From positions 4,466 through 68,465 of the forward strand of contig JAUSHE010000014.1 in assembly GCA_030648435.1 (NCBI GenBank): a DNA stretch of 64,000 bases, read 5' to 3'. Position 1 is the first letter of the stretch. Each line of letters opens with the position of its first letter. Positions 6,994 through 23,692 of this stretch are shown piece after piece. The notes under the pieces are model-generated. The model made no database searches and was not told the DNA's origin. It saw only the letters and a list, made by a program, of their open reading frames with translations. The translations under genes were made by a program, and so were the position numbers. The stretch comes from Candidatus Daviesbacteria bacterium. Lineage in GTDB: Bacteria > Patescibacteriota > Microgenomatia > Daviesbacterales > UBA10151.

Positions 6994-9150
6994 ATGATTA
7001 ACAATCTTTCGGTTTTTTTTCCTTGTATTAATGAAGAGGGGAACATTGAAAATACTGTCAGTAAGGCGGAAAAAGTTTTGAAACGCCTTAAGGTTAACTA
7101 TGAAATTATCATAATTGATGACGGTTCAACAGATTCTACAGGCAGGATTGCAGATAAGCTGGTCCGGGAAAATCCCAATATCAGGGTGATTCATCATCCA
7201 AAAAATTTAGGTTACGGAGAAGCTTTAAAATCCGGTTTTTATAATGCTAAATATGACACCATAGTTTATACGGACGGTGACGGACAGTTTGATTTTTCAG
7301 AGATTTATAAATTTTTAGAGAAAATAAAAGATAACGATCTGGTGATAGGTTACAGAATAAAAAGGCAGGATTCGCTGGTAAGAAGGTTTTTTGGTAAGGG
7401 TTGGAGATTAACACTGCTTGCCCTTTTTGGACTGACTTTAAAGGATGTTGACTGCGGTTTTAAGATGGTTAGGAAAAGTGTTTTGGAAAAAGTGCCGCAC
7501 CTTGAATCTCAAAGAGGAGCAATGATAAATGCGGAACTTGCAATTAAAGCAAAAAAATACGGCTTTAAAGTAGGTCAAGTAGGAGTAAATCATTATCCCA
7601 GATTATCCGGTAGGCCAACGGGTGCAAACATTAAAGTGATTATTAAATCTTATGTAGATCTTATGAGATTATGGTGGGAATTGAAGGATCAAAAAATTAC
7701 ACTTTTTGTACTAATCGGAATACTGGTACTGGCGGTATTTTTAAGATTTTATAGATTATCGGATTACATGACTTTTCTGGGAGATGAAGGAAGAGATGCG
7801 ATTATTGTCAGGGATATTCTGAAGGGGGTAAATTTTCCCTTAATCGGGCCGCCGACTTCAGTAGGAAATATCTACTTAGGCCCTCTCTATTACTACATGA
7901 TGACATTGCCAATGGCAATCTTTAATCTTAATCCTACAGCCGCTGCAGGCATGAATGCGTTTTTGGGGGTGGTGACAATTATTTTAATCTATTATTTGGG
8001 TAAAAGTTGGTTTGGTAGATATGCCGGCTTAATAGCAGCTTATCTATATGCCATATCACCGGTGACCATTATTTATTCACGGTCTTCCTGGAATCCGAAT
8101 CCTACTCCTTTCTTTGCCACAGTTGCCATAATTAGTTTGTACAAGCTGAATAAAACAGGTAATTTCTTATGGCTTACTTTGACCGGCTTAGCAATTGGAG
8201 CGGCGCTGCAGATGCATTATCTGGCAGCAATATTAATACCTGTTGCCGGTATTTTATGGTTATACGAAATCTTGATTAGAAAATATTGTCACCTAAAAGT
8301 TAAAAACTTGATTAGCGGAACTTTATTGGGGATATGTTCATTTGTTTTAACAATGCTGCCACTGGTTTTTTTCGACTTAAAACATAATCTCTTAAACTAC
8401 AGGGCAATTATTAAGTTATTCAGCGAAGGAAGTGCTGTTAAGGCTGATATATTTGCAAATATCGGACGGATGCCTCTTCTTTATTCAAATAATCTGGTGG
8501 GAAGATATATTAGCGGTGAGAATTTTTATTTAACAATTACAGTTTCATTATTAATCATAATCGCACTTCTATACAAATGGAATTCCTGGCCCAGGATTAC
8601 TTTAGGAGTTTGGTTAATTGTTGGGCTTTTTGGATTAGCTTTTTATCAACAGAGTATATACGATCATTATTTAGGATTTTTAAATCCCGCTCCTTTTTTA
8701 CTTTTGGGATCTATAGCTACAGTCAAAGTTTTTAATAAACAAATTACTTATATTGGTTTGACAGTAATATTGCTGTTTTTATCAGTAGTGAATTTGCAGA
8801 AAACCCCTTTACTTTATCCGCCAAATCATCAACTTGCAAGAACACAAGAAGTAGCAAAATTTATAATTGATAAAACAAATAATAAAGATTTTAATTTTGC
8901 CTTAATTGCCAAAAGCAATTATGATTCTGCTTACCAATTTTATTTGGATTTATATGGGTTTAAACCTAAACAAGTACCATTTGATAAAACAAATCAGCTT
9001 TTTGTGGTTTGCGAGGATCCGGTTTGTGATCCAACACATAGTGCAAAATATGAAATAGCTGCTTTTGGTTGGTCCAGAATTGACTGGCAGAGAGATTTTA
9101 ATGGGATTAAGATATATAGATTAATACCTAATCCATCCGGAAAACCATGA
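6994..9150 (+). CDS. Fusion protein with an N-terminal GT2 polyprenyl-phosphate glycosyltransferase domain and a C-terminal PMT_2/ArnT-like GT-C membrane domain.
   Basis: Residues 1-230 carry a Dpm1-like GT-A domain (LSVFFPCINEEGNIE, IIIDDGSTDST, DGDGQFD). Residues ~240-718 are polytopic, with a GDEGRDA motif in the first extracytoplasmic loop as in the GT39/GT83 family. Confidence 0.75.
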   Translation: MINNLSVFFPCINEEGNIENTVSKAEKVLKRLKVNYEIIIIDDGSTDSTGRIADKLVRENPNIRVIHHPKNLGYGEALKSGFYNAKYDTIVYTDGDGQFDFSEIYKFLEKIKDNDLVIGYRIKRQDSLVRRFFGKGWRLTLLALFGLTLKDVDCGFKMVRKSVLEKVPHLESQRGAMINAELAIKAKKYGFKVGQVGVNHYPRLSGRPTGANIKVIIKSYVDLMRLWWELKDQKITLFVLIGILVLAVFLRFYRLSDYMTFLGDEGRDAIIVRDILKGVNFPLIGPPTSVGNIYLGPLYYYMMTLPMAIFNLNPTAAAGMNAFLGVVTIILIYYLGKSWFGRYAGLIAAYLYAISPVTIIYSRSSWNPNPTPFFATVAIISLYKLNKTGNFLWLTLTGLAIGAALQMHYLAAILIPVAGILWLYEILIRKYCHLKVKNLISGTLLGICSFVLTMLPLVFFDLKHNLLNYRAIIKLFSEGSAVKADIFANIGRMPLLYSNNLVGRYISGENFYLTITVSLLIIIALLYKWNSWPRITLGVWLIVGLFGLAFYQQSIYDHYLGFLNPAPFLLLGSIATVKVFNKQITYIGLTVILLFLSVVNLQKTPLLYPPNHQLARTQEVAKFIIDKTNNKDFNFALIAKSNYDSAYQFYLDLYGFKPKQVPFDKTNQLFVVCEDPVCDPTHSAKYEIAAFGWSRIDWQRDFNGIKIYRLIPNPSGKP

Positions 9151-9878
9151 ATAAATTATCAGTTGTAATACCTTCATATAACGAATCAGCCAACCTAAAG
9201 AAAGGGGTGCTATCTGGTATTGCAGAATACATGGATAATTTAAAAATCGCGTACGAAGTGATTATTGTGGATGACGGATCAACTGATGATTCGGTAATGC
9301 TTGTTAAAAAATTTCAGGGAAAAAATTTTAGGTTAATTCAAAATAATCATGGTGGAAAAGCAAAAGCTGTTTTAACCGGAATGATGGCAGCGCAGGGGGA
9401 AATTGTGCTTTTTACCGACATGGATCAGGCAACACCTATAAATCAGATTGAAAAATTTATACCAAAATTTGACGAAGGATTTGATATTGTGATCGGATCC
9501 CGTCATGGTAGAAAAGGAGCGCCTTTGGTTAGAAAATTATCAGCCTGGGGTTTTTCTTTCTTGCGGGGTATTATTTTGGGGCTGCCGTTTGCAGATACCC
9601 AGTGTGGCTTTAAGGCTTTTAACAGGCAGTCGGTTCATAAAATTATTCCAAAAATTAAGAATGAGTGGGGAGTAGTGCATTTTAAAGGTGGTGCAGTTAA
9701 TGCCGGATTTGATGTAGAGGTTTTGTACCTTGCCAAGAAATACGGCTTTAAAATTGTTGAAGTTCCGGTGGAATGGAAATATGTGGATACGGAAAGAGTG
9801 CAGGTTGTTAAAGATGCTTTGGCCGCGATTTATGATATGCTCAGAATCAGATGGAATGATCTGACCGGAAAATACTGA
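9147..9878 (+). CDS. GT2 polyprenyl-phosphate glycosyltransferase (Dpm1/ArnC-like).
   Basis: LSVVIPSYNE, VIIVDDGSTDDS and TDMDQ motifs. 243 aa. ATGA overlap with the upstream gene. Confidence 0.8.
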   Translation: MNKLSVVIPSYNESANLKKGVLSGIAEYMDNLKIAYEVIIVDDGSTDDSVMLVKKFQGKNFRLIQNNHGGKAKAVLTGMMAAQGEIVLFTDMDQATPINQIEKFIPKFDEGFDIVIGSRHGRKGAPLVRKLSAWGFSFLRGIILGLPFADTQCGFKAFNRQSVHKIIPKIKNEWGVVHFKGGAVNAGFDVEVLYLAKKYGFKIVEVPVEWKYVDTERVQVVKDALAAIYDMLRIRWNDLTGKY

Positions 9879-9890
9879 TATAATACACTT

Positions 9891-11414
9891 GTGAACTTTC
9901 TTCTAAAACATCGTCTGGAAATTTTGATCCTTGCATTGTTGGCAGTTGCTTACTTTATCATTAGGTTGCCTAATTTAACGCTGCAGCCTATTTTTGCGGA
10001 TGAGGCGATATATATCAGATGGGCTCAGGTGATGAGAGCAGAGCAGACATTGCGTTTTTTACCTTTATCTGACGGTAAGACGCCGCTCTTTATGTGGGCT
10101 ATGATGCCGATGCTCAAATTTATTCAGGATCCGCTTTTAGCCGGAAGGTTGTTATCCGTAATCTCGGGTTTTACCACTTTGATGGGGGTATTTTTCTTAT
10201 CAAGGAAGATCTTCAATTTAAGAACTGCTGTATGGGCGGGTTTGCTTTATGTGATTACGCCTTATACTGTTTTTTTTGATAGGATGGCTTTAGTTGATTC
10301 AATGCTGTCTGCATTTACAGTTTGGGTTGTTTATTTTAGTCTTTGGCTTGTGCGTGCTTTACGGTTGGATATATCTATGATTTTAGGATTCTTGATGGGA
10401 GGAGCAATTTTAACAAAAACCCCCGGCATGTTTAATCTTTTTCTCCTGCCGATTGCCACGATAGCTTTTAGAAGAGAAAAAGATAAAAAGAACTCTTTAA
10501 TTAGACTTCTTGTTTTGCTGGGTGTAGCAATTATGATCGCTCTTCTTGCCTATAACTTTCTTAGATTGGGCCCGAATTTTCAGTTGTTATCTTCTCGGAA
10601 TGCGGATTATATCTTTTCCCCTTTTGAACTGATTGGTAGGCCCCTTGATCCTTTTATCCCTCATTTTCATGACATTGCCGATTGGTTCCCAAAGCTTTTG
10701 ACATGGCCTATCCTGTTATCAGCGGTAATTGGGACGGTATATACCATATACGGAGTTTTCCAGTATTCTTTCAGGGGTCAATATTTACCACGTTTAGTTA
10801 TTTTGCTTTGGGGAATTTTACCGATTCTTGTAAATATGGCATTTTTAAAAACTTTTACAGCCCGTTATTTACTGTCTTCGATTCCTCTTTTTCTGGTAAT
10901 TGCCGGCTTCGGAGTCACTAAAATTCTTCCTCCACTTGCGTATATAAAAAAACTTCCGCTTTTTATTATGTTTATTGTTTTGCTGCCGCTCCCTTTATAT
11001 TTTAATTATTTATTGCTTACATCACCGGAAAAAGCTCCTTTACCGAGAGAAGAACGAGCAGGTTATTTTGAAGAATGGACAGCCGGTTACGGATTTGCCG
11101 ATATTGCAGCTTTTCTAATAGAGAAAAATAAAGAAAATAGAGTGGTCCTCGGGACTGAAGGTTTTTTTGGTACTTTGCCCGATGGCCTTTATATTTATCT
11201 GGATAAGGCAAATATTTCTATCGTAGGTTCTCATGCAACAATTTCAGCTCAAATTAGAAATGCTGCAAAAGATAATTTGACCTATTTTATCGGAAACAAA
11301 AAAAATCTAAAAGGAAGCATTGATAATGTAAAATTGATTTTAGAGTACCCAAAGGCAAAACCGAAAAACGGCTCGATGCAGGATGCCACAGTTCTATATC
11401 AGGTATTGCCATAA
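9891..11414 (+). CDS. GT-C fold glycosyltransferase, ArnT/PMT_2-like.
   Basis: GTG start. 507 aa and polytopic, with an ADEAIYIRWAQ motif after the first TM as in the ArnT-type DE motif. Confidence 0.65.
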   Translation: MNFLLKHRLEILILALLAVAYFIIRLPNLTLQPIFADEAIYIRWAQVMRAEQTLRFLPLSDGKTPLFMWAMMPMLKFIQDPLLAGRLLSVISGFTTLMGVFFLSRKIFNLRTAVWAGLLYVITPYTVFFDRMALVDSMLSAFTVWVVYFSLWLVRALRLDISMILGFLMGGAILTKTPGMFNLFLLPIATIAFRREKDKKNSLIRLLVLLGVAIMIALLAYNFLRLGPNFQLLSSRNADYIFSPFELIGRPLDPFIPHFHDIADWFPKLLTWPILLSAVIGTVYTIYGVFQYSFRGQYLPRLVILLWGILPILVNMAFLKTFTARYLLSSIPLFLVIAGFGVTKILPPLAYIKKLPLFIMFIVLLPLPLYFNYLLLTSPEKAPLPREERAGYFEEWTAGYGFADIAAFLIEKNKENRVVLGTEGFFGTLPDGLYIYLDKANISIVGSHATISAQIRNAAKDNLTYFIGNKKNLKGSIDNVKLILEYPKAKPKNGSMQDATVLYQVLP

Positions 11415-11416
11415 AT

Positions 11417-13147
11417 ATGCTGCACTTTCTAGAGAACAGATCCTATAAATTCTGGGTAATTCTGACTTTAATATTTACTATCCCAACTTTTTATCAATTA
11501 ATTAGTCCTGGTTTTTTCTTTATGCAGGATGATCTGCAGGCCATGAGGATACATCAGATGTTCCGATGCTTTCAGGACTTTCAGCTGCCTTGCAGATGGG
11601 TTCCTGATATGGGTTATCAATATGGCTATCCACAGTTTCTATTTTATCCTCCAGGTGTTTATTATCTTGGTGCTCTATTTCACCTTTTGGGTGTTCAGAT
11701 TATAGATAGTGTAAAATTGATGTTTATCTTAGGTTATATCTTCTCAACGCTTTTTATGTTTATTTTTTTAAAAGCTTTTTTCGACGGGGAATCCAAGCAA
11801 AAGAATTTCATATATACAACCTTGCCGGCTTTTTTCGGAGCGATGCTTTATACTTATATTCCCTATAAAGCGCTGGAAGTATATGTCAGAGGGGCTTTAA
11901 ACGAATTCTGGAGTTTAGTTTTTTTCCCATTCATTTTTTGGGCAATTTATCAATTAATAAGTAAACAAAAATTAAAGTTTCTTTTATTTCTTGCACTTTC
12001 CATCGCCGGATTGCTGCTTACTCATAATCTAATGACTCTTATTTTTGCGCCGCTAATAATAATATGGTGTATTAGTTTGGTTGTTTTAAAGAAAAGTTGG
12101 AGGGTTGTTCCTAAAATTTTTCTCGGAGGTCTTTTGGGGATAGGTCTTGCAGCATTTTTTACCCTTCCAGTAATTTTTGAAGGAAAGTATGTTCATCTGG
12201 AATCTCTATTGGGTGGTTATTTTGATTACAGAGCGCATTTTGTTTCAATTAATAGGCTTTTTGTATCAAATCTTTTTGGCTACGGTTCATCAGGGATCGG
12301 ACAGGATAATAATTTAACTTTATCAACAGGACAAATCCAATGGATCGTTGCTTTGATTGGACTAATTCTATCCCCCTTTCTTTTATATAAACAAAAGAAT
12401 ATAGCGATTTTAATAATGATATTTTCTGTTTTAGAACTTGGAGTTTTATTTATGATTCATCAAAAGTCATCATTTATTTGGGAGAAGCTACCGATTTTGG
12501 CTTATTTGCAATTTCCTTGGAGATTTTTATCTGACAGCATTTTCATTCTTTCGTTTTTGGGCGCAATAACAGCTTTCTTTATTAGTCAAATAAACAAAAA
12601 TTTTGCAAAAATATTTATAATTACTGTTTTAATCGGAATCCTTGTATTGCATGCGTCATTTTTTCAACCTAAAGAGCGTTTTGGGATTTCCGATAAGGAT
12701 AAATTTTCCGGCTTTTTTTGGGAAAAACAATTAACAATCAGCATTTTTGATTATCTGCCGATATATGCCAAACTCCCGCCTAATAAAAAAGCGCCGTTGC
12801 TGCCGGAAATTCTGGAAGGGGATGTAAACTTTATAAGTTATCAAAAAGGAAGCAATTATCAATTTGGAGAAGTCAAGGTTCTTAAAAACTCTGTTATAAG
12901 ACTGCCGCTTCTTGATTTTCCGGGTATGAGAGTTACGGTAGATGGAAAAGTAGTTGAACATCAAAATAATGATTGTAGGGGAGAAGAATTCTGTTTTGGT
13001 TTAATAACATTTAATTTACCAACAGGCTCACATTTCATAAAAGTAAAACTGGAGGATACGCAAGTCAGAACCATAGGTAATATAATTAGCTTGATATCAG
13101 CGACAGTGCTTTTATTTCTGCTGATTAAAAACTATGGAAAGAAATAA
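11417..13147 (+). CDS. Paralog 1 of an unassigned GT-C-like family with a DD...CRWVPD...YGYP signature and a C-terminal soluble domain.
   Basis: 576 aa. QDDLQAMRIHQM follows the first TM, then C...LPCRWVPDMGYQYGYP and YVRGALNEF, with a C-terminal FPGMRVTVDGK region. These motifs are shared with the ORFs at 13134, 14776 and 17680. Confidence 0.6.
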   Translation: MLHFLENRSYKFWVILTLIFTIPTFYQLISPGFFFMQDDLQAMRIHQMFRCFQDFQLPCRWVPDMGYQYGYPQFLFYPPGVYYLGALFHLLGVQIIDSVKLMFILGYIFSTLFMFIFLKAFFDGESKQKNFIYTTLPAFFGAMLYTYIPYKALEVYVRGALNEFWSLVFFPFIFWAIYQLISKQKLKFLLFLALSIAGLLLTHNLMTLIFAPLIIIWCISLVVLKKSWRVVPKIFLGGLLGIGLAAFFTLPVIFEGKYVHLESLLGGYFDYRAHFVSINRLFVSNLFGYGSSGIGQDNNLTLSTGQIQWIVALIGLILSPFLLYKQKNIAILIMIFSVLELGVLFMIHQKSSFIWEKLPILAYLQFPWRFLSDSIFILSFLGAITAFFISQINKNFAKIFIITVLIGILVLHASFFQPKERFGISDKDKFSGFFWEKQLTISIFDYLPIYAKLPPNKKAPLLPEILEGDVNFISYQKGSNYQFGEVKVLKNSVIRLPLLDFPGMRVTVDGKVVEHQNNDCRGEEFCFGLITFNLPTGSHFIKVKLEDTQVRTIGNIISLISATVLLFLLIKNYGKK

Positions 13148-14804
13148 ACTAATCTTTAAATTTTGGCCTTTTGCCATTTTATTTTTTTTCACCATCCTGA
13201 TAGCATGGCCGCTGTTTTTGCCGGGATACTTTTCGCATCATGATGATTTACAAGTGATGAGAATTTTTGAGATGAGGAAATGCATAGAAGATTTGCAGAT
13301 TCCCTGCAGATGGGTTCCTGATATGGGATACGGGAATGGGTATCCTCTGTTTAATTACTACAGTGTATTCCCCTATTACATAGGAGCAACTGCCAGTTAT
13401 TTGGTAGGTTTTGTAGGAAGCGCAAAGTTGATCTTCTTTTTAGCAGTGTCTTTTGCAGGAATATCGATGTATTTTTTTGTTAGGGAACTTTTTGGCACAT
13501 ATCCGGCTCTTACTGCGAGCGCGCTCTATATGTTTGCTCCGTACAGAGCGCTTGATATCTATGTAAGAGGTGCAATAGCAGAAAGTTTTTCAATCGCAAT
13601 AATCCCTTTGGTTTTCTTCTTTGCACTTAAATTGATTAAACATGACCAACAAAGGTTTAGGATTGGACTTACTTTATCTTTTGCAGCATTTTTATTAAGT
13701 CACAATATCATGATTATTTTATTTCTTCCGGTCATAATTTCAATTTTATTCATCTGGTATTGGAAAAAAAATTTTAAGACTATTAAAACTTTAGTTATAT
13801 CCTTATTTTTAGGGTTTTGCTTATCGGCTTTTTTCATAGTGCCCGCGTATATGGAGCAGAATCTGGTACAAATAGATAATTTGGTTAGATTTTCTTTAGA
13901 TTTCAGAGGTCATTTTATTAATTTGTATCAGTTGTTTCTGGATAGGTCTTGGGGGTATGGTGTTTCTTCTACTGGTACAGCAGATACGATGTCTTTTCAA
14001 ATAGGATGGCCTCATTATTTCCTTGTTATAGCATCAGTTTTTAGTTTATTAGTAATAAAAAGAAAAGAACGAAAGCTTATTATGTTTAATTTAGTGCTGC
14101 TTGCAGCATTTGTTTTCTCCTTATTTATGACTCATGTAAGATCTGCTTTTATATGGGAGCAGATCGGGATTTTAAGATTTGTCCAGTTTCCTTGGCGTTT
14201 TTTGTCTGTTGCAATATTTACTGCAAGCTTATTAGGAGCTTTTTTTGTATATTCTCTAAAAGAGTCGTTTGTCAAAATTACTGTAGCACTGTTAATTTTA
14301 AGCGCTATTATTTTAAATGTGAGTTATTTTAAACCGCAACAATTTATTTTTAATTTAACTGATGAAGAAAAATTGAGCGGACAACTTTGGGAGACTCAAC
14401 AAAAAGCAGCCATTTTAGATTATTTGCCGGTTGGCGCTTTAGAGCCACGGGAATCTGCTCCTTTAAAACCGGCTATTTTAGCAGGTGATGCTGTAATAAA
14501 GAATTTTCAGAATAGATCCAATAGTTGGCATTTCCAGGCGAATGTGACTGATAGTGCGATCGTTGAAGTGCCTATTTTTGATTTTCCAAACTGGCAGGTA
14601 TTTGCAAATGGAAAAAAAATAAATCATTCAAATAAAAACTATCTGGGAAGAATTAGTTTTACTCTTCCATCCGGTGAATATTTTGTTGTTGGAAAGTTTA
14701 ACAATACTTTGGTTCGGACAGTAAGTAATACAATTTCTTTGATTTCAATTTTTATATTGATTGGGCGACCGCTATATGAAAAAAGTAGAAGAAATAATAA
14801 GTAA
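13134..14804 (+). CDS. Paralog 2 of the DD...CRWVPD family (GT-C-like).
   Basis: 556 aa. HHDDLQVMRIFEM, IPCRWVPDMGYGNGYP, YVRGAIAES and C-terminal FPNWQVFANGKK. Confidence 0.6.
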   Translation: MERNKLIFKFWPFAILFFFTILIAWPLFLPGYFSHHDDLQVMRIFEMRKCIEDLQIPCRWVPDMGYGNGYPLFNYYSVFPYYIGATASYLVGFVGSAKLIFFLAVSFAGISMYFFVRELFGTYPALTASALYMFAPYRALDIYVRGAIAESFSIAIIPLVFFFALKLIKHDQQRFRIGLTLSFAAFLLSHNIMIILFLPVIISILFIWYWKKNFKTIKTLVISLFLGFCLSAFFIVPAYMEQNLVQIDNLVRFSLDFRGHFINLYQLFLDRSWGYGVSSTGTADTMSFQIGWPHYFLVIASVFSLLVIKRKERKLIMFNLVLLAAFVFSLFMTHVRSAFIWEQIGILRFVQFPWRFLSVAIFTASLLGAFFVYSLKESFVKITVALLILSAIILNVSYFKPQQFIFNLTDEEKLSGQLWETQQKAAILDYLPVGALEPRESAPLKPAILAGDAVIKNFQNRSNSWHFQANVTDSAIVEVPIFDFPNWQVFANGKKINHSNKNYLGRISFTLPSGEYFVVGKFNNTLVRTVSNTISLISIFILIGRPLYEKSRRNNK

Positions 14805-16419
14805 ATATTGGTTTTTAATCATATGTCTTTTATCGTTTCCGGCTATACGGGCGCTTTTTGTAAGTGGTTATTTTGGGGCGTCAGATGATATGCATATTGC
14901 CTGGCTTTACGAGATAGATAAGATAATCAAATTGGGACAAATCCCGCCGCGGTTTGTGCCGGATTTGAGTTTTGGTTTCGGATACCCCCTGTTTAACTTT
15001 GTTTTTCCGCTTCCGTTTTATATCGGTGAGATTTTTCATTTGCTGGGATTATCTTTTGTAGATAGTATAAAGGCTGTTTTTTTAATTAGCGTACCGCTGT
15101 CAGGGATATTCATGTATTTACTGCTCCGGCAATTCGTGGAAAGGAACTTAAGTCTAATAGGGGCAGTTTTGTATATTTATACACCATACCGGTCTGTAGA
15201 TTTGTATGTCAGGGGAGCAATAGGGGAGATCGTGGGTTTTGTGTTTTTGCCGTTAATAATTCTCTCTGCCGCAAAAATTTTCGCTAAAGGTAATTTTAAG
15301 TGGATAGGAATTGGTGCTTTATCAATTGCTTCCCTAGTGTTGTCGCATAATATAGCGGCATACATGTTTTTTCCGTTTGTTGGATTTTTACTTATTATTC
15401 AATTTTTTTTAACTCCACTAAAAAAAGAATATATTACAAAAGCATTTCTAATGATTTTTTTAGGTCTTCTTACAAGTATTTATTTCTGGCTGCCTGCTTT
15501 AACAGAGAGTAATCTGGTAAAGCAAGATACCGTATTTAATTTTGCGGATCATTTCCCGACTCTTTTACAGCTAATTAGGCCTTATTGGGGGTATGGGGCC
15601 TCTGTACCTGGTCCGTATGATGGCATGTCTTTTTTTCTGGGAATAGCGAATATCTTACTTTTATTTTCAGGGATTTGTTTGTTTATATTTAGGTGGAAGC
15701 AAATTAGTATTCAAAGGAAGGTATTTATTGGGTGGGTTTTGGGTGTTATTACGGTGGCAATTTTTCTAATGAATTACCGCTCGACTATTATATGGAATAA
15801 TTTTCCGTTTCTTGCTTATTTTCAATTCCCCTGGAGATTTTTGATTTTGACAACATTTTTTATACCGTTATTACTTATTATTTTTGACAAGATAAGGATT
15901 AATAATTTATTATTGACGATTTTATTATTGCTTATCATCATATCAAGTATGTCTTATTTCAGACCGCAGGATTTTTTGGGAAGATTAGATAATTATTATC
16001 TTAATCGTTATATTCCAACTCCCGCTGCAAGCAAAGAATATCTGCAACTTCAGGAGGAATATTTAAGGCTTCCGAAAGCTGCCGAGAGTAGGCCGGATAA
16101 AAATTATCCAATGGTTTTTCCAGACAGTGGAATAATAAAGGTGAATAAGCGTAGTGATTTAGATGTGGTTATTGAATCTAATTCGAATGTAGAAAGTTTA
16201 ATTAATTTAAATAAATATTATTTTCCGGGCTGGAAGGCAAAGATTGATGGTAAAAAAATGGATATTTGGGCAGGTAAACCTTTCGGACAGATAAGTTTTT
16301 CTATGCCTGCAGGCTATCATAAAGCAGAAATATATTTTACTGAAACAACCTTTAGGAGCTTATTAAACTTTGCTTCACTGGGTGCATTTTTAGTATCATT
16401 AGTAGTGTTATCATTATGA
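14776..16419 (+). CDS. Paralog 3 of the DD...RWVPD family (GT-C-like), lacking the cysteine pair.
   Basis: The track start is TTG at 14761. I prefer the ATG at 14776. SDDMHIAWLYEI, IPPRFVPDLSFGFGYP, YVRGAIGEI and C-terminal FPGWKAKIDGKK. Confidence 0.55.
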   Translation: MKKVEEIISKYWFLIICLLSFPAIRALFVSGYFGASDDMHIAWLYEIDKIIKLGQIPPRFVPDLSFGFGYPLFNFVFPLPFYIGEIFHLLGLSFVDSIKAVFLISVPLSGIFMYLLLRQFVERNLSLIGAVLYIYTPYRSVDLYVRGAIGEIVGFVFLPLIILSAAKIFAKGNFKWIGIGALSIASLVLSHNIAAYMFFPFVGFLLIIQFFLTPLKKEYITKAFLMIFLGLLTSIYFWLPALTESNLVKQDTVFNFADHFPTLLQLIRPYWGYGASVPGPYDGMSFFLGIANILLLFSGICLFIFRWKQISIQRKVFIGWVLGVITVAIFLMNYRSTIIWNNFPFLAYFQFPWRFLILTTFFIPLLLIIFDKIRINNLLLTILLLLIIISSMSYFRPQDFLGRLDNYYLNRYIPTPAASKEYLQLQEEYLRLPKAAESRPDKNYPMVFPDSGIIKVNKRSDLDVVIESNSNVESLINLNKYYFPGWKAKIDGKKMDIWAGKPFGQISFSMPAGYHKAEIYFTETTFRSLLNFASLGAFLVSLVVLSL

Positions 16420-17675
16420 ATTTTATAAAAAGACCGCTAGTTTTCATTTTACTTATAGGTATCATTATCAGATTTATTTTATCGGCTATAACATTCCATC
16501 CAGATATTATACATTTTGATCTGGCGGGATATGTATTAGGTAAAGGGAATTTTTTGAACTTCTATGATTATACTTATGGATTAGATAAAAATGATCCTGT
16601 TTTAAAAAATTATCCTGTTAATTTGTTTAATTATCCTCCGGCTGTTTATTTTTATGTCGGTAGTATGAATTGGATTTTCACCAGTCTAACTGAAAAAAAT
16701 TTCCATAATATGTTTTTGTTTGATTTTAAAAATACTTTAGGAAATATACAATTAAACTTTCATTTAATCCTGCTTAAGATTCCATACCTCCTTTTTGATG
16801 GTGCAATTGCGTATTTTTTGTATAACATTTTTTTGAATAAGAAAGAAAAGATTTTAGCGCTCGCTCTTTGGGTTTTTAATCCATGGGTTCTATATTCAAC
16901 ATATATGATGGGTCAATTTGATATTATTCCAACCGCTTTTGTAGTAAGCGCCTTGTATATAATCAAAAAAAATTACAATTTTAATAAAAAAATATTTATC
17001 GCAGTTGTTCTATTAGGAATTGGTGCGTCATTTAAAATATACCCATTATTATTTTTGTTACCAGTTGCCTTTCTTTTAAAAAAGCGATTCAATAAACTTC
17101 TGGCAATTATTTTAGGAATCTCTGTTTATGTGATAACAATCCTTCCATTTATCGGTTCTTCGGGGTTTCGGTCAACGGCACTACTTGCAAACCAAACCCT
17201 TAAAAGTTTATATGCCCAAATTCCAATTTCAGGAGGAGAAAGTATAATTTTATTTTTGGCATCCGTCGGCTTTTTTTATATTGTTTACCTTTATAGAGGA
17301 AAAGAAGTTGAAAATTTATGGCAGAGCTTTTTTATAATTATGCTTTTATTTTTTATCTTTACTCATTATCATCCACAATGGTTTTTATGGCTTACACCCT
17401 TTTTAATTTTTGAGCTTATTTATAGTAATTTTAAACATTTAATATTAATGGTTTTAATGGGGGTAAGTTTTTTAGGTGCTGTATTTTTATTTGAGCAGTC
17501 ATTAACCATAGGTTTATTTTCACCCCTAAACGCTGCTTTGTTTGATGGGCTTGATCTTTGGCGTCTGCTTCATATAAATATTGATCTTAATTTTGCAAGG
17601 AGTTTATTTCAAACTCTATTCGCATCAGTAGCAGTATATTTTATTTACTATTATTTTCCGAAAAAAATAGATTAA
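16416..17675 (+). CDS. Polytopic membrane protein, possibly GT87/DUF2029-like GT-C.
   Basis: 419 aa with about 10 hydrophobic segments and HPDIIHFDLAGY...NYPPAVYFY in the first loop. The family assignment is tentative. Confidence 0.4.
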   Translation: MNFIKRPLVFILLIGIIIRFILSAITFHPDIIHFDLAGYVLGKGNFLNFYDYTYGLDKNDPVLKNYPVNLFNYPPAVYFYVGSMNWIFTSLTEKNFHNMFLFDFKNTLGNIQLNFHLILLKIPYLLFDGAIAYFLYNIFLNKKEKILALALWVFNPWVLYSTYMMGQFDIIPTAFVVSALYIIKKNYNFNKKIFIAVVLLGIGASFKIYPLLFLLPVAFLLKKRFNKLLAIILGISVYVITILPFIGSSGFRSTALLANQTLKSLYAQIPISGGESIILFLASVGFFYIVYLYRGKEVENLWQSFFIIMLLFFIFTHYHPQWFLWLTPFLIFELIYSNFKHLILMVLMGVSFLGAVFLFEQSLTIGLFSPLNAALFDGLDLWRLLHINIDLNFARSLFQTLFASVAVYFIYYYFPKKID

Positions 17676-17679
17676 AAAT

Positions 17680-18822
17680 ATGTTTAAAAAAAAATCCTTC
17701 CTGATAGCTTTGGTAATCATTTTTACATTGTTTTCTTTTATTCTAATTTTTTCTAGTCAACAGATTTACATTGGTAGGCTTTATGATATGCATAATTGTA
17801 TTAAGGACGGTCAAATTCCCTGCAGATGGGTACCCGCACTGGAAAATTCTTACGGCTCCCCCATATTTAATTATTTTCCGCCATTACCCTATTATTTCGG
17901 AGAACTTATCTTTCTGCTCAGCAGCAGTCTCGCTTTTGCTGTGAAAATAATATTGTTTGGCAGCTTATTTGGAACATATATTTTTATGTATCTTCTGGTT
18001 TCAACATTTACCAAAAAAACAAAAATATGGATATTACCTATAATTTATACTTTTATTTCTTTTCTGGCATTGTTTTTTTTGAAAGAAGGATTAGGGCTTG
18101 CGTGGGGATTGATGCTTTTTCCTTTAATCGTTTTAAGTTTAGAAAAACTTATCAAGAAAAAAAATGTCAATGAGTTTTTGTTTTCATCCATTTTTTTAGC
18201 TCTTTTAATTTTATCTTCGGATGCAGGCCTTATATTCATAAGTTTGCTTTTCCTTTGGTTTCTTTTCCGTTATATTAAAAATAAAAATTTAGTCTCTTTT
18301 GCAATAACTTTATCCTCAATAGTTTTCGCTTTTCTTTTGTCTGCTTTCTATATTTTCCCATCGTTACTGGAAAGGAATTTACTTAGTAATGTGTCAGGTT
18401 CTAGATATCTGCCAAAATCAGCGGAAGAGAAGCCAAAAAAAAATATTAATTCAGCTTATGAAATATTAACAGGAGACCTGGTTATCTCCAATTTTAAGCA
18501 GGGTTCTAACTGGTTTAAATTTGAAACAGATACAAAAACACATTCGATTATCCGTTTGTCTAAAATTTATTTCCCGGTTTGGAAAATCTTTGTTGACGGA
18601 AAAGAAATTCAGATTGAGTACAAGAATAATAGTTTGGGCTTAATGACTGTTATTATCGGGGAAGGCTTACATGTTGTAGAGGGTAAATTATTTGATACAC
18701 CAATACGTTCAATTTCAAATACAATTACAATTGTTTCTTCAATTCTAGCTTTTCTATTATTTTTTAGTCAGTTAAAAGTAGTCAGTTATTTGTTAGGTTA
18801 TTACAGAAAGAGAATGAATTAA
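17680..18822 (+). CDS. Paralog 4 of the CRWVPD family, N-terminally shorter or diverged, with no DD motif.
   Basis: 380 aa with NCIKDGQIPCRWVPALENSYGSP and a C-terminal YFPVWKIFVDGKE. It lacks the YVRGA...E motif. It may be a degraded copy. Confidence 0.5.
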   Translation: MFKKKSFLIALVIIFTLFSFILIFSSQQIYIGRLYDMHNCIKDGQIPCRWVPALENSYGSPIFNYFPPLPYYFGELIFLLSSSLAFAVKIILFGSLFGTYIFMYLLVSTFTKKTKIWILPIIYTFISFLALFFLKEGLGLAWGLMLFPLIVLSLEKLIKKKNVNEFLFSSIFLALLILSSDAGLIFISLLFLWFLFRYIKNKNLVSFAITLSSIVFAFLLSAFYIFPSLLERNLLSNVSGSRYLPKSAEEKPKKNINSAYEILTGDLVISNFKQGSNWFKFETDTKTHSIIRLSKIYFPVWKIFVDGKEIQIEYKNNSLGLMTVIIGEGLHVVEGKLFDTPIRSISNTITIVSSILAFLLFFSQLKVVSYLLGYYRKRMN

Positions 18823-18827
18823 ATAAT

Positions 18828-20300
18828 ATGGAAGAAAGCGTTGAACAAATTGATCCAACTCAGGAGTTGACCACAGATATAATTAAGAAGCGTGCTGTCA
18901 AGGGCGCGGCTATATTAACCGGCAGAATGATTTTAATGCAGGGGGTTTCCTTTTTTGCGATGGCATTTTTAACTGTGTTTCTGGCGCCCTCGGAATTTGG
19001 GGTTTTCTATGTGGTAGCAGCTGTAAAAAATCTATTATCCTATTTTAGTGATATTGGTTTTGCGCCAGCTTTAATTCAAAAAAAAGAGAAACTAACAAAT
19101 ATCGAACTTAAGACTATATTTACTGCCCAACAAGTCCTGATTCTTTTGGTGATCATTCTTGGTTTTATTCTTACTCCGTTAATACAAAAAATCTATCATC
19201 TAAATTTGCAGGCGGTGTATTTGCTATGGGCCTTTCTGCTGTCGTTATTTTTTTCTTCTTTAAAAACTATACCTTCGGTTTTAATGGAGAGGAAATTGGA
19301 GTTTAATAAATATGTAATTCCCCAGGTAGCTGAAAATATTGTTTTTAATTTAACTGCGGTATTTTTGGCATGGAAAGGATTTGGAGTAACAAGCTATACA
19401 ATTGCGGTTATTTTATCCGGTTTATTGGGACTCGCTTTGACATATATTGTTAAACCATGGTGGCCGGGAATTGCGTTTTCGGTAACGGCTTTTAAATCGG
19501 TATTAAAATTTGGTATTCCTTATCAGGCGAATACCCTACTTGCTATGATTAAGGATGATGGGATGATTTTGTTTTTGGGGAGCTTTATTGGTACATCAGG
19601 TGTAGGTCTGTTAGGGTGGGCCCAAAAGTGGGCTTATGCTCCTTTAAGATTCTTTATGGATCAGGTGATAAAAGTAACTTTTCCGGCATTCTCCCGTTTG
19701 CAGGATAACAGAAAAGACTTATCCGATTTAGTAACAAAATCTATTTTTTTCATTTGTCTCCTGGTTTTTCCGTCTCTTGTGATACTTACTTTTGTGGTGC
19801 CCAGTCTAGTGTACATAATACCGAAGTATGCTAAGTGGAGTCCTGCTATTTTTGCTCTTTCGGTTTTGACGATAACTTCAGGTTTGGCAGCTATTACCAC
19901 TCCTTTGACCAATACCCTAAACGCCATAGGTAGAATTACTCTCACTTTTAAACTAATGATTATGTGGACCGTCTTAACTTGGATTTTCGTGCCAACATTA
20001 GCTTTGCTTTATGGGGTTAACGGTGCAGCTGTCGGGTTTACTCTGGTCGGATTAAGTTCTGTGATAGCTTTGTATTTGGTGGCGAAACACGTGGATATAG
20101 ATTATTTAAAAAGTGTTGGTAAGCCACTTCTGGCAGCAATTTTGATGGGGGTTTTTATATTTATAATCAGAAATATTGTACCTTTGTCTTTGCTCCAGGT
20201 CATATTCATGATAAGCACAGGTTTGATTTCCTATATTTTGATAATCTTCTCTTTAGAACCTGGTCTTCTTAGGATAATAAAAAATCAATTCAAAAAATGA
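18828..20300 (+). CDS. wzx: Wzx-like oligosaccharide/polysaccharide flippase (MOP superfamily).
   Basis: 490 aa with about 12-14 TM segments. The N-terminal region (KGAAILTGRMILMQGVSFFAMAFLTVFLAPSEFGVFYVV) is typical of polysaccharide biosynthesis/export proteins. Confidence 0.7.
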   Translation: MEESVEQIDPTQELTTDIIKKRAVKGAAILTGRMILMQGVSFFAMAFLTVFLAPSEFGVFYVVAAVKNLLSYFSDIGFAPALIQKKEKLTNIELKTIFTAQQVLILLVIILGFILTPLIQKIYHLNLQAVYLLWAFLLSLFFSSLKTIPSVLMERKLEFNKYVIPQVAENIVFNLTAVFLAWKGFGVTSYTIAVILSGLLGLALTYIVKPWWPGIAFSVTAFKSVLKFGIPYQANTLLAMIKDDGMILFLGSFIGTSGVGLLGWAQKWAYAPLRFFMDQVIKVTFPAFSRLQDNRKDLSDLVTKSIFFICLLVFPSLVILTFVVPSLVYIIPKYAKWSPAIFALSVLTITSGLAAITTPLTNTLNAIGRITLTFKLMIMWTVLTWIFVPTLALLYGVNGAAVGFTLVGLSSVIALYLVAKHVDIDYLKSVGKPLLAAILMGVFIFIIRNIVPLSLLQVIFMISTGLISYILIIFSLEPGLLRIIKNQFKK

Positions 20301-23300
20301 AAAAGCTGCTATTGTTATTTTTGTTTCTACTATCTTTTAGTTTTGTTCCAAAAGTCTTTGCTCAGAATAGTTCATTCGTCTCAATTGTTAATCCGATACG
20401 AGGCAATGATTTTTGGGATATGAAAGACCAAAAAGCAGAAACAGCAGTATTGGGACAAATTGAGATTTTAAACAAGAACAAATTACCTGCCACCTGGTTA
20501 ATTCGGTTTGACGCATTAGATAATCAAATCATTATAAACGCGACGAAAGGAAGATTATCCGACGAGAAAGGGATATTTTTAGAAGTTACTTCCAGCTGGG
20601 CTAATGCTGCAAAGGTTACTTATCATAAATCTGATATCTGGCATATGGCAGGCAGCGCTTTTTTAACAGGTTACGAAAGATTGGAACGGGAAAAGTTAAT
20701 AGATGCGGCATTTGAAAAATTCAAGAGCATTTTCGGATATTTTCCTTCTTCTATCGGAGCCTGGTGGGTTGATAGCTATTCTTTGGATTACATGCAAAGG
20801 AAATATGGAATCACCGGAGCCCTTATTGTAGCTGATCAATATTCAACCGACAATTACCAAATCTGGGGTCAGTATTTCGGAACACCATATTATCCGGCCA
20901 AAAATAACGCTCTTCACCCTGCTAGCTTTAAAGAAACAAAACTTCCTGTAGTGATAATGCAATGGGCTTCCAGAGACCCCGTAAATGCTTATGGAAATGG
21001 TGTTAATGAAAGTACATTCAGCGTTCAGGCAAATGATTACACTGATTATCATGATTTGGACATAAAATATTTTTCCTCTCTTGTTGATATTTACACAGAA
21101 CAAAAATATAACGGATTTAGTCATTTGGTGGTTGGTTTGGAAAATTCTTATGACTGGAATAAATATGGATCTGAATACCGAAGGCAGATAGAAATTTTAT
21201 TGAAGAAACAGATCAATATTACTACAATGTCTGATTTTGCCCAGTGGTATAAAAATAATTTTCCGGAAATTTCTCCAGAGCAAATAGTTATCGCTGACGA
21301 TCCTCTGGGAAGTTTTAAAAAATCTGTCTGGTTTATGAACCCTCACTATAGGGCTTTTTTATTTGTTAATCAGGAAGGAGTAGTTTTTCGTGATGTAAGG
21401 CAATATATTGAAGGGGAAGAAGAGTTGTGCTATTTGAAGAGTTGTTCAATTGTAAATTTTGCAACATTTGCCACAAGAGTTTTGGATGATGTGACTTATG
21501 GTAATAAATGGGTTATAGATGGTGGAGGAATAAGAGATTTTAATGTTTCAAAGACTTTAACAGGATACCTGATAAGTTATATAAACGATGCTGGGAATAA
21601 GCGCAAAATAGAATTTTTACCAAAGGATATTAAAATTGATGAAAAGATATTCACCATCGATGGGGCAATTTTGAATGCTATAGGACAGGATAATAAAATA
21701 CCGAAAAAAATCTCTGATTTTAAAAACGGATTTTTTAAATGGTCAATTTCTTCTGTATTTTTAAAATCAGCTTTTTTTGGTCTCTTTTTGGTTTTAGCTT
21801 GTTTTTTACCAGGTTTTATTTTCACAAATAAGTTATACAAAAAAGATGATGGAATATTCATAAAAATATTTATTGCAACGATAATAGGTATTGTCTTATT
21901 CACAGTTATTTCCTATGGTACAAGCTTTTTTAATATTAAATTATTGGTTTATGCATATATAATTGTTCCGCTGTTTATATTTTTTCGTTTTAAATTTTTT
22001 AAAGCTTTAAATTTAAAACTACAAAAACCTGACATATTCAGCTTACTCTCGGTATTGATGATTTTTGTGGGAACAATCTTTCAAGTGATACCAGTTTTTC
22101 GAAGTGGTCTAAGTTTTCCTTATGGTATGGGTTTTTGGGGACCTAACGCACATGATGGTATTTGGCATGTTAGTTTAATTAATCAAATTGCAAAAGGCCT
22201 GCCTGCAGACAATCCCATTTTTGCAGGTGTAATTTTGAGGAATTATCACTTTTTTTATGATCTGCTTGTTGCTGGAACCTACAATTTAACCAATATCCCT
22301 GTTTTGGATCTAGTCTTCAGATTTTATCCGTTAATTTTTTCAATAATGCTTGGTATAGGAACTTATTATTTAGCCTTAAATCTTTTTGGGACAACGATTA
22401 AAGGAAAAGTAGCTGCAATTTTCAGTCTTTATTTCGTTTATTTTGCTGGTAGTTTTGGTTGGATTGCAGATTATTTAAAGCACAAAACTTTAGGAGGAGA
22501 ATCCGCGTTCTGGGCGAACCAGTCAATATCATTTAATTTAAATCCCCCCTTTGCGATATCGCTTCTTATAGTTATTGCTTTCCTGTTAATTTTTTTATCT
22601 GCCAGAAGATTAAATAGAATAAGCGTTATAAGTATTTTGGCTTTACTTGGAGGTAGTTTAATAGGTTTTAAAGTTTACGGCGCCGTTCTTTTAATAGGTT
22701 CACTGATTCCTATAGCGATAATTTCACTATTTAAGAAAGAATTTACCATTTTTTATATAACAATATTTACAGTATTTCTTTCCGGTTTAATATTTCTATC
22801 TAATTTCGAGTCGGGGCAGCAACTTATTATTTTTTCTCCTTTCTGGTTTATTCATTCAATGATTGATTCTGAAAGCAGAATAGGGTGGGTAAAGCTTTCA
22901 CTTGCAAGAGTAGCAGGATTGGAAACGCATAACTGGTTTAAATTTATAATCGCAGAGATAATAGGTGTTGTTTTATTTATTGTAGGCAATATGGGCTTCA
23001 GGGTTTTAAGTTTTACTGCACTTGGGAAATTTCCGTTTTTACTATTTTTTTCTGCACTATCATTTTTTATACCCGTAATACTTATTCAGGGAGGAAATCC
23101 ATGGAATACAATTCAATTTTCTTATTATGGCCTTTATATAACAGCATTAATTAGCGGTATTGTTTTATCGTCGTTAATTCTAAGCATCAAAAAAGCTTTA
23201 GCGGTAATAATTGTGATTATTGTTTTAATATTAACGCCTATTAATTCTGTTACGACAGCAAGTTATTATTTAGGTGTACCTCATGCTATTATCAGCGATA

Positions 23301-23692
23301 AAGAACTTGAGGCATTAAGATTTTTGGCAGAACAACCCGAAGGAATAATACTTACTTACCCCTACGATGATAAATTAAAACAAAAATTAAATGAGCCATG
23401 GCCGCTTCTTGCTTATGATAGTACGGCTTATGTTGCTGCTATTTCGGGAAAAAGTGTTTTTGTAGAAGACGAGGGACAAAATCAGATTCTGTTTACCAAC
23501 TACAAGAAAAGACTTATTTCTTCTAAAGATTTTTTTCAAAACGCAATCTCACAAAAAACAAAATTTCTGCAGGAGAATAAAATAAGTTATATTTATCTGC
23601 CAAAGATATACAATGTATTCCTGGATGAGAAGGCGGTACCCGTTAAAAGTATTTTTGAAAATGAAAAAGTGAAAATATATCAAAGAATTTGA
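20297..23692 (+). CDS. Giant three-part protein (1131 aa): signal peptide, ~480-aa extracytoplasmic domain, large polytopic domain, C-terminal soluble domain.
   Basis: Signal-peptide-like MKKLLLLFLFLLSFSFVPKVFAQN. The TM domain carries GPNAHDGIWHVSLINQ and SFGWIADYL..GGESAFWANQ motifs. The C-terminus ends in KISYIYLPK. It is paralogous to the ORF at 23694. Confidence 0.6.
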   Translation: MKKLLLLFLFLLSFSFVPKVFAQNSSFVSIVNPIRGNDFWDMKDQKAETAVLGQIEILNKNKLPATWLIRFDALDNQIIINATKGRLSDEKGIFLEVTSSWANAAKVTYHKSDIWHMAGSAFLTGYERLEREKLIDAAFEKFKSIFGYFPSSIGAWWVDSYSLDYMQRKYGITGALIVADQYSTDNYQIWGQYFGTPYYPAKNNALHPASFKETKLPVVIMQWASRDPVNAYGNGVNESTFSVQANDYTDYHDLDIKYFSSLVDIYTEQKYNGFSHLVVGLENSYDWNKYGSEYRRQIEILLKKQINITTMSDFAQWYKNNFPEISPEQIVIADDPLGSFKKSVWFMNPHYRAFLFVNQEGVVFRDVRQYIEGEEELCYLKSCSIVNFATFATRVLDDVTYGNKWVIDGGGIRDFNVSKTLTGYLISYINDAGNKRKIEFLPKDIKIDEKIFTIDGAILNAIGQDNKIPKKISDFKNGFFKWSISSVFLKSAFFGLFLVLACFLPGFIFTNKLYKKDDGIFIKIFIATIIGIVLFTVISYGTSFFNIKLLVYAYIIVPLFIFFRFKFFKALNLKLQKPDIFSLLSVLMIFVGTIFQVIPVFRSGLSFPYGMGFWGPNAHDGIWHVSLINQIAKGLPADNPIFAGVILRNYHFFYDLLVAGTYNLTNIPVLDLVFRFYPLIFSIMLGIGTYYLALNLFGTTIKGKVAAIFSLYFVYFAGSFGWIADYLKHKTLGGESAFWANQSISFNLNPPFAISLLIVIAFLLIFLSARRLNRISVISILALLGGSLIGFKVYGAVLLIGSLIPIAIISLFKKEFTIFYITIFTVFLSGLIFLSNFESGQQLIIFSPFWFIHSMIDSESRIGWVKLSLARVAGLETHNWFKFIIAEIIGVVLFIVGNMGFRVLSFTALGKFPFLLFFSALSFFIPVILIQGGNPWNTIQFSYYGLYITALISGIVLSSLILSIKKALAVIIVIIVLILTPINSVTTASYYLGVPHAIISDKELEALRFLAEQPEGIILTYPYDDKLKQKLNEPWPLLAYDSTAYVAAISGKSVFVEDEGQNQILFTNYKKRLISSKDFFQNAISQKTKFLQENKISYIYLPKIYNVFLDEKAVPVKSIFENEKVKIYQRI

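Follow-up and report, generated by a model that had tools for sequence, protein, structure and literature searches.

The mycobacterial embCAB locus encodes a trio of tandem glycosyltransferase C (GT-C) paralogs with carbohydrate-binding C-terminal domains. In Firmicutes, YfhO-type (CsbB/GtcA/YfhO) multi-component transmembrane glycosylation systems combine a GT-A synthase, a flippase and a GT-C enzyme and act on teichoic acids (PMC8035078), while the streptococcal YfhO-type enzymes PgtC2 and PgfM1 glycosylate Ser/Thr-rich proteins (PMC12041528). Pfam family PF10131 (PTPS_related) is a member of the GT-C clan CL0111, where it is listed as of unknown function (PMC7801869). Here we analyze a 64,000-nucleotide stretch of Candidatus Daviesbacteria contig JAUSHE010000014.1 (hereafter the window), which carries an array of four GT-C-like paralogs, P1 to P4. 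We conclude that P1, P2 and P3 are probably active, lipid-phosphate-sugar-dependent GT-C enzymes that belong to a Microgenomates-specific branch of PF10131. The embCAB trio is the closest organisational analogue of the P1-P2-P3 array, although the Emb (EmbC-EmbA-EmbB) and AftD proteins are larger (~1,100–1,400 amino acids [aa]), have larger soluble domains and carry motifs unrelated to those of P1–P4. Like the Firmicutes YfhO-type systems, the window places GT-C genes beside a flippase gene and a probable GT2 synthase of polyprenyl-phosphate sugars, but it holds three or four tandem paralogs where those systems have one enzyme.

The four open reading frames were confirmed (Table 1), and tblastn found no further copy in the window. 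They are clear paralogs, with BLASTP E values ranging from 1e-117 (P1/P2) to ~1e-10–1e-22 (the two halves of P4) and pairwise identities of 29–37% in the multiple alignment; P1 and P3 are homologs of P2 at E=1e-117 and 1e-68, respectively. To describe conservation we used a locus set of 216 family members, drawn from 80 fetched loci and the window, and a diverse set of 146 representatives that are mutually <50% identical. A profile built from the four paralogs retrieved 5,351 cluster representatives (50% identity) at E≤1e-30 and 17,966 at E≤1e-3, the latter count probably reaching beyond the family itself. In a scan of the species genomes of GTDB, 552 loci were confirmed; nearly all belong to Microgenomates, with Daviesbacteria, Woesebacteria, Blackburnbacteria and other Patescibacteria represented. 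Many GTDB records with a Microgenomates-type cluster (L002, L005, L006, L008, L009 and others) bear the title “uncultured Gammaproteobacteria bacterium ... binchicken”, and a single one reads “Bdellovibrionales”; such titles do not seem to reflect true taxonomy and have the appearance of placeholders or of mis-binning.

A preliminary description of this DNA, made from the sequence without database searches, had regarded the four proteins as an unassigned family. That view has to be abandoned, as P2 (49.3 bits) and P4 (32.9 bits) pass the PF10131 gathering threshold of 26.4 bits; P3 scores below it (20.7 bits) and P1 gives no match. In a Pfam census of 64 mutually diverse relatives, where E≤0.01 counted as a match, PF10131 matched 55. 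NCBI lists proteins with 100% identity to P2 and to P4 from a Candidatus Daviesbacteria metagenome-assembled genome, both under the name “6-pyruvoyl-tetrahydropterin synthase-related protein”. Judged by these profile matches, P1–P4 are a divergent Microgenomates branch of an already catalogued family: divergent because the match covers only profile positions ~1–340 of 621, the branch having its own motifs (C-x7-C-RWVPD and QFPWR) and a different C-terminal half. A Pfam scan at E≤1 found no 6-pyruvoyl-tetrahydropterin synthase (PTPS) enzyme family in any paralog, which rules out a real PTPS enzyme, and since the proteins are polytopic membrane proteins without such a domain, “PTPS” is a misnomer for them. 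No paralog matched NCBIfam. The best PDB match (E=0.66), to an 89-aa chain of a Ser/Thr kinase entry, resembles FPGW...DGK...G.H and was treated as chance. A confident match to a non-glycosyltransferase family, which the preliminary description had named as counting against its GT-C assignment, was not found.

We next compared the family with the established GT-C groups. An STT3-type oligosaccharyltransferase (STT3/AglB/PglB) was rejected, in keeping with the preliminary description, since none of P1–P4 contains WWD[YWF]G (nor, specifically, WWDYG) and the STT3 model matches only 2/64 relatives. The same description had also separated the paralogs from PMT_2 and GT87, and this stands only in part. 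P2 (17.8 bits) and P3 (21.6 bits) fall below the PMT_2 (PF13231) threshold of 26.1 bits and the Pfam GT87 model gives no match; yet the family profile aligns with the PMT_2 GT-Cs of the window over TM2–TM7 (transmembrane helices 2 to 7) with an hhalign probability of 97.6% (E=4e-12), placing YVRGAxxE on the PMT_2 “FSRxAxE” motif, and PMT_2 itself matches 22/64 diverse relatives (GT-C_AftD, 4/64). Homology to PMT_2 is real at the profile level. P1–P4 differ from PMT_2/PMT enzymes (Pmt1/2/4, ArnT) in lacking a MIR domain, in having another C-terminal module and in carrying DD in place of DE. A different relationship is apparent with YfhO (PF09586, threshold 28.5 bits), to which P1 aligns at 11.1 bits over profile positions 763–820 only. 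Ten of the 64 relatives match YfhO (best 2.1e-10; P0241, 35.7 bits), and they pass only through its C-terminal ~75 positions, with profile positions ~756–832 matching above threshold. The YfhO C-terminal module, a beta-sandwich followed by a terminal helix, is therefore common to the P1–P4 family, but the scores do not place the family within YfhO, whose profile of 835 positions is ~300 residues longer and leaves the TM core of P1–P4 unmatched.

The fold of P2 was modeled with AlphaFold2 from 69 sequences (pLDDT 86.6, pTM 0.90), and the model superposes on solved GT-C enzymes with a Foldseek probability of 1.00. Model helices and sequence together predict 12 TM helices with the N-terminus inside. 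Across 205 full-length members, the density of Lys plus Arg is 0.30 in the predicted inside loops and 0.09 in the outside loops, the cytoplasmic loops IL2, IL3 and IL4 holding 2.4–3.3 basic residues per 7–11 positions. This topology places DD, C-x7-C-RWVPD, YVRGAxxE, His190, Glu241, QFPWR and the beta-sandwich on the outside. The positive-inside signal accordingly agrees with the preliminary description, which had expected both the DD loop and the C-terminal domain to be extracytoplasmic and had named a cytoplasmic DD loop as a refutation; its broader proposal, a GT-C architecture whose active site faces outward, proved correct. The C-terminal soluble domain that it reported is indeed present, at ~127 aa and not the ~150 aa given. 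The FPxW...DGK motif, which it had put at the end of this domain, is also present but lies inside it; in P2 the domain is followed by a TM12 anchor (526–555) and a basic tail. The preliminary description had not included this C-terminal TM helix.

The structural data also bear on whether P1–P4 could be Wzy/WaaL-type enzymes that polymerise or ligate glycans and not transferases of single sugars. P2 and P4 show weak Wzy_C matches (E=0.0076 and E=0.002), and a Wzx-type flippase adjoins the array. Since the corresponding PF04932 scores of 16.5 bits (P2) and 18.4 bits (P4) compare with a threshold of 31.7 bits, and the fold neighbours are the wrong ones for such enzymes, we consider this highly improbable.

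The motif set of the preliminary description is present, with DD(L/M) and YVRGAxxE in P1–P3 and xGYP and FPx(M/W)-x5-(D/N)GK in all four paralogs. The motif in external loop 1 (EL1) reads (C/I)-x7-(C/P)-R-(W/F)-V-P-(D/A) across P1–P4, and further conserved motifs beyond those described before are His190, Glu241 and QFPWR351–355 (P2 numbering here and below). An acidic residue is conserved in the first extracytoplasmic loop after TM1 of P1–P3, and P4 has QQ there. Asp37 is found in 206/216 members of the locus set and 133/146 of the diverse set, Asp38 in 184/216 and 95/146. Near-invariant positions among the 216 are R59 and G69 (214 each), P485 (212), R145, G146, E150 and H190 (210 each) and E241 (208). 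QFPWR is intact in 211/216, the other 5 being gaps; in the diverse set its Q, P, W and R are each present in 143–145 of the 146 and its F in 130. The near-invariant pattern of the locus set is repeated in the diverse representatives.

The preliminary description had reported a C-x8-C pair lost as a unit from P3. The spacing needs correction, as the cysteines lie at i and i+8 and form C-x7-C, whereas the covariation itself proved exact. In the locus set 157 members have both EL1 cysteines and 59 have neither; in the diverse set the counts are 78 and 68; no mixed case occurs among the 362 sequences. Mapped on a neighbour-joining tree, the both/neither character requires 4 changes, compared with ~50 when tip states are shuffled, indicating about four independent switches, each affecting both residues and leaving no surviving intermediate. 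Where the pair is missing, A, S, T or V occupies its first position and V or P its second. All 61 full-length members of the P1 clade retain the pair, and the P3 clade lacks cysteine at both positions, its listed states all being of the form x...P. A second pair, C520/C526, lies in a P1-specific insert of the beta-sandwich and behaves in the same all-or-none way, with 38 of the 61 P1-clade members having both residues, 23 neither and 0 one. The number of cysteines per family protein has a median of three and is exactly two in P4; all cysteines of P1–P4 that lie outside the predicted membrane helices are members of these two pairs.

The natural reading is that both pairs form extracytoplasmic disulfides, as the preliminary description had suggested for the EL1 pair. 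In EL1, C-x7-C would most likely staple the RWVPD loop to the point where the first juxtamembrane helix ends, and the P3 lineage would manage without this bond. We also weighed metal binding or a redox switch, as perfect co-occurrence would fit any function that needs both residues. This appears quite unlikely: the EL1 pair sits in a predicted extracytoplasmic loop, two cysteines alone make a poor metal site, the residues found in their place (A/V, A/P, T/P) are hydrophobic or proline, as would be expected on loss of a structural staple, and the C-x5-C pair of the extracytoplasmic beta-sandwich behaves alike.

P4 was previously described as lacking DD and YVRGA and as perhaps degenerate or specialised. 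Both motifs are absent (SQQI and FFLKEGLG occupy the respective positions, and the R145/E150 equivalents are missing), but the loss is larger than had been noted, including His190, QFPWR and ~190 middle residues that span TM8–TM11. P4 keeps TM1–7, and hence the conserved 7-helix GT-C module, together with C40-x7-C48-RWVPA, E231, the beta-sandwich, the C-terminal TM helix and a basic YYRKR tail. Because TM8–TM11 is an even number of helices, their deletion leaves the beta-sandwich outside the cell. The AlphaFold2 model of P4 is reasonably confident (pLDDT 77.9) and shows a helix bundle at the N-terminus, joined through a disordered linker to the beta-sandwich, with the terminal helix after it.

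P4 belongs to a conserved lineage of truncated proteins, in accord with the “degenerate or specialised” of the preliminary description, and is not an isolated relic. Over 30 intact short orthologs (distinct clusters) of 372–419 aa were found, with amino-acid identities of at most 67% and down to 42%. When they are aligned, 35 columns are invariant, among them C40, C48, R49, E231 and those of most of the beta-sandwich; DD is replaced by QQ, QE, SE or similar. The cytoplasmic tail of this lineage (18778–18819 in P4) carries YY(R/K)KR with two invariant tyrosines, a motif not present in the P1–P3 tails, and may be an interaction motif. The closest relatives of P4 are full-length proteins of 563–591 aa that occupy rank 4 of the array in other genomes, with intact HHDDV, C-x7-C-RWVPD, YVRGAMGE, SHN and QFPWR motifs; P4 is 41% (N-module) and 50% (C-terminal domain) identical to them, against ~30–33% for ranks 1–3. 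The short copy of locus L004 still has “ED” and “YQRGVLGE” and is intermediate. By this kinship and this intermediate, P4 descends from a full-length fourth paralog that lost its variable module in frame, after which the catalytic residues decayed while the ectodomain stayed constrained.

A decaying pseudogene without function would account for the absence from P4 of DD, R145/E150, His190, QFPWR and four TM helices. We regard it as unlikely, given the >30 intact orthologs down to 42% identity, the 35 invariant columns that extend into the tail, the topology-preserving deletion of an even number of helices and the reasonably confident model. P4 is most likely a non-catalytic partner that would bind lipid or acceptor, much as does PIG-U/GAB1, the non-catalytic GT-C-fold subunit of the glycosylphosphatidylinositol (GPI) transamidase. 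The two have no sequence relationship, the PIG-U complex resides in the eukaryotic endoplasmic reticulum, and P4 keeps its beta-sandwich ectodomain and lacks the variable module entirely.

The P1-P2-P3 array is ancient and ordered. Its gene order is kept in 50 of 80 related loci, in 34 alone and in 16 with a fourth copy, and the pattern with a short P4 at the end occurs in five arrays (the window, L001, L004, L009 and L067). Genes 6994–23692 of the window are tightly packed, with gaps of ≤12 nt or overlaps of 4–44 nt, and this packing is consistent with a single operon spanning them. For the 50 loci that have full 10-kb flanks, neighbours within 10 kb are nearly all on the same strand; those with recurrent homologs are listed in Table 1. 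Between P3 and P4 lies the gene at 16416, which the preliminary description called GT87-like. The name holds, since homologs at 50–70% identity carry PF09594 (GT87/DUF2029) and PF05007, the protein itself having no Pfam match.

The neighbourhood also supplies a candidate source of donor. GtrB/ArnC/Dol-P-Man synthase-type enzymes make polyprenyl-phosphate sugars, the donors of GT-C transferases. The best PDB relatives of the 9147 GT2 are GtrB sll0501 (1.2e-17), ArnC (5e-17) and an archaeal Dol-P-Man synthase (1.7e-12), and a GT2-GtrA fusion (4662–5843) matches Dol-P-Man synthase at 3.6e-25. Four relatives carry an N-terminal GT2 domain of their own (P0125, P0137, P0140 and P0233; PF10131 also matches three of the four), a fusion that directly links donor synthesis with the P1–P4 family. 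Long family open reading frames of 805–862 aa in L023, L044, L053 and L064 are of the right size for GT2 fusions and are candidates only. Separately, P0121 (1093 aa), P0122 (1116 aa), P0124 (3329 aa) and P0156 (1670 aa) are tandem fusions of at least two complete family copies, which fit the idea of paralogs working side by side.

We propose the following scheme. GT2 enzymes of the GtrB/ArnC/DPMS (dolichol-phosphate mannose synthase) type would load a sugar onto polyprenyl phosphate at the cytoplasmic face, and the lipid-linked sugar would be flipped by the GtrA-type domain (4662–5843) or by the MOP flippase (18828). Each of P1, P2 and P3 would next pass a sugar to an acceptor at the cell surface, the first aspartate of EL1 serving as base and R59, R145 and R355 holding the phosphate. 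As acceptor we tentatively favour a glycopolymer of the wall or surface, which the beta-sandwich may help to hold; we lean this way because the beta-sandwich is of a carbohydrate type and is shared with YfhO, the flippase is Wzx-type and the island is polymer-style in its make-up.

P1–P3 might instead be protein O-glycosyltransferases that, like PMT, TMTC and PgtC2/PgfM1, move sugars from polyprenyl phosphate to Ser/Thr-rich surface or membrane proteins. Pmt4 is the closest fold neighbour at low root-mean-square deviation, and the YfhO-type PgtC2 and PgfM1 do act on Ser/Thr-rich proteins (PMC12041528). Against this, none of the window proteins has a MIR or TPR domain, the C-terminal beta-sandwich resembles carbohydrate-related accessory domains, the Wzx-type flippase, GT4, GT2 and deoxy-sugar pathways are typical of polymer synthesis, and no candidate acceptor protein was found in the window. 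We hold protein O-glycosylation to be a serious rival, though the less likely reading.

Several points weigh against the glycopolymer-directed GT-C scheme for P1–P3. The choice between polymer and protein acceptors is weakly grounded, and the window yielded no acceptor candidate of either kind. The role of DD as catalytic acid derives from position alone, as the PMT_2 profile alignment covers only TM2–TM7 and not EL1. Foldseek TM-scores reach only ~0.4–0.47, with no close solved relative, and PDB sequence searches with 4- and 123-sequence profiles returned nothing significant. The window contained no thiol oxidoreductase that we could find, and synteny with GT2 and flippase genes is also expected of any glycan island. 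Finally, the literature searched contained no functional study of any PF10131 member, nor one combining the candidate phyla radiation (CPR) with GT-C.

A bolder extension, which we think rather unlikely, unites P1–P3 and P4 (or the full-length version of P4) in an obligate hetero-oligomer of GT-C proteins that would act as a core machine for building the Microgenomates envelope. In it the truncated P4 would be a PIG-U-like pseudo-glycosyltransferase subunit that presents the lipid donor or acceptor to the catalytic paralogs, and having or lacking the EL1 disulfide would set subunit roles apart. If true, it would be the first GT-C complex from bacteria in which one GT-C subunit is dedicated to a non-catalytic role.

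Table 1. Paralogs, motifs and recurrent neighbours of the array (window positions; locus counts refer to the 50 loci with full flanks).
Feature	Position	Strand	Description
Paralog 1 (P1)	11417..13147	+	576 aa; full-length GT-C, PF10131 branch
Paralog 2 (P2)	13134..14804	+	556 aa; full-length GT-C; paralog that was modelled
Paralog 3 (P3)	14761..16419	+	552 aa from TTG 14761; 547 aa from first ATG 14776
Paralog 4 (P4)	17680..18822	+	380 aa; truncated GT-C derivative
P1 motifs			DD38-39, C51-x7-C59-RWVPD, YVRGALNE156-163, H203, QFPWR365-369, FPGM...DGK501-511, C520/C526
P2 motifs			DD37-38, C50-x7-C58-RWVPD, YVRGAIAE143-150, H190, E241, QFPWR351-355, FPNW...NGK484-494
P3 motifs			all catalytic-type motifs present; EL1 Cys pair replaced by I55/P63
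P2 Asp37-Asp38, putative catalytic pair	13242..13247	+	start of external loop 1
DD equivalents	P1 11528-11533; P3 14884-14889; P4 17758-17763		Gln-Gln in P4
P2 EL1 cysteine knot	13281..13322	+	C50-IEDLQIP-C58-RWVPD, with near-invariant Arg59
EL1 cysteine knot equivalents	P1 11567-11608; P3 14923-14964; P4 17797-17838		Cys-less in P3
P2 YVRGAIAE	13560..13583	+	external loop 2; R145, G146, E150
YVRGAxxE equivalents	P1 11882-11905; P3 15205-15228		
P2 QFPWR351-355	14184..14198	+	external loop 5
QFPWR equivalents	P1 12509-12523; P3 15823-15837		absent from P4
P2 C-terminal beta-sandwich	14328..14708	+	extracytoplasmic; ~residues 399-525; holds FPNW...NGK
P1 second co-varying pair	12974..12994	+	C520-RGEEF-C526 (C-x5-C); P1-specific insert of beta-sandwich
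MOP/Wzx-type flippase (Polysacc_synt_3)	18828..20300	+	Pfam 7e-46; 46/50 loci
PMT_2 GT-C	9891		41/50 loci
Small GT2	9147..9878	+	probable polyprenyl-phosphate sugar synthase; 37/50 loci
GT2::PMT_2 fusion	6994-9150		31/50 loci
GT87/DUF2029-like	16416..17675	+	419-aa polytopic protein between P3 and P4; 26/50 loci

Almost the whole window (positions 476–61011) is one glycan-biosynthesis island with at least 15 GT-C-type genes: the four PF10131 paralogs, nine PMT_2 genes (including the 6994 fusion and 50071), a weak PMT_2/PF10131 match at 30160, the GT87-like 16416 and a PIG-V-like gene at 41008. Other island genes are ten GT2, two GT4, rmlA/B, two rmlC/rmlD sets, gmd and two C-methyltransferases. 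The latter (Methyltransf_13/14; 47574–48827 and 55975–57189, both on the minus strand) adjoin epimerase/dehydratase genes and the second rmlC/rmlD pair, and the gene content suggests synthesis of C-methylated or branched deoxy-sugars. A DUF5672 protein (51897–52694, minus strand; E=7e-51) lies among the sugar-modification genes. Directly downstream of the flippase are proteins of 1131 aa (20297–23692) and 675 aa (23694–25721), neither with a Pfam match and the former also without an NCBIfam match; the 1131-aa protein has a signal-peptide-like start, a soluble region of ~480 aa and then many hydrophobic helices. Homologs of the two are syntenic in 20/50 and 33/50 loci, respectively.

The GT-C superfamily and PF10131 were already known, and our results refine an annotation and overturn nothing. 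The new elements are modest: an array of three or four genes conserved in Microgenomates, two cysteine pairs that are kept or lost as a unit, fusions to GT2 and a conserved lineage of truncated pseudo-GT-Cs. It is nonetheless striking that, in a CPR genome of ~1 Mb, essentially the whole 64-kb window serves glycan synthesis. As the P1-P2-P3 triad is kept across Daviesbacteria, Woesebacteria and Blackburnbacteria, it is likely a core component of their chemically uncharacterised envelope. The motif set, the topology, a likely route to the donor and, in P4, a naturally occurring derivative that is catalytically dead provide handles for the first biochemistry of a PF10131 family member.

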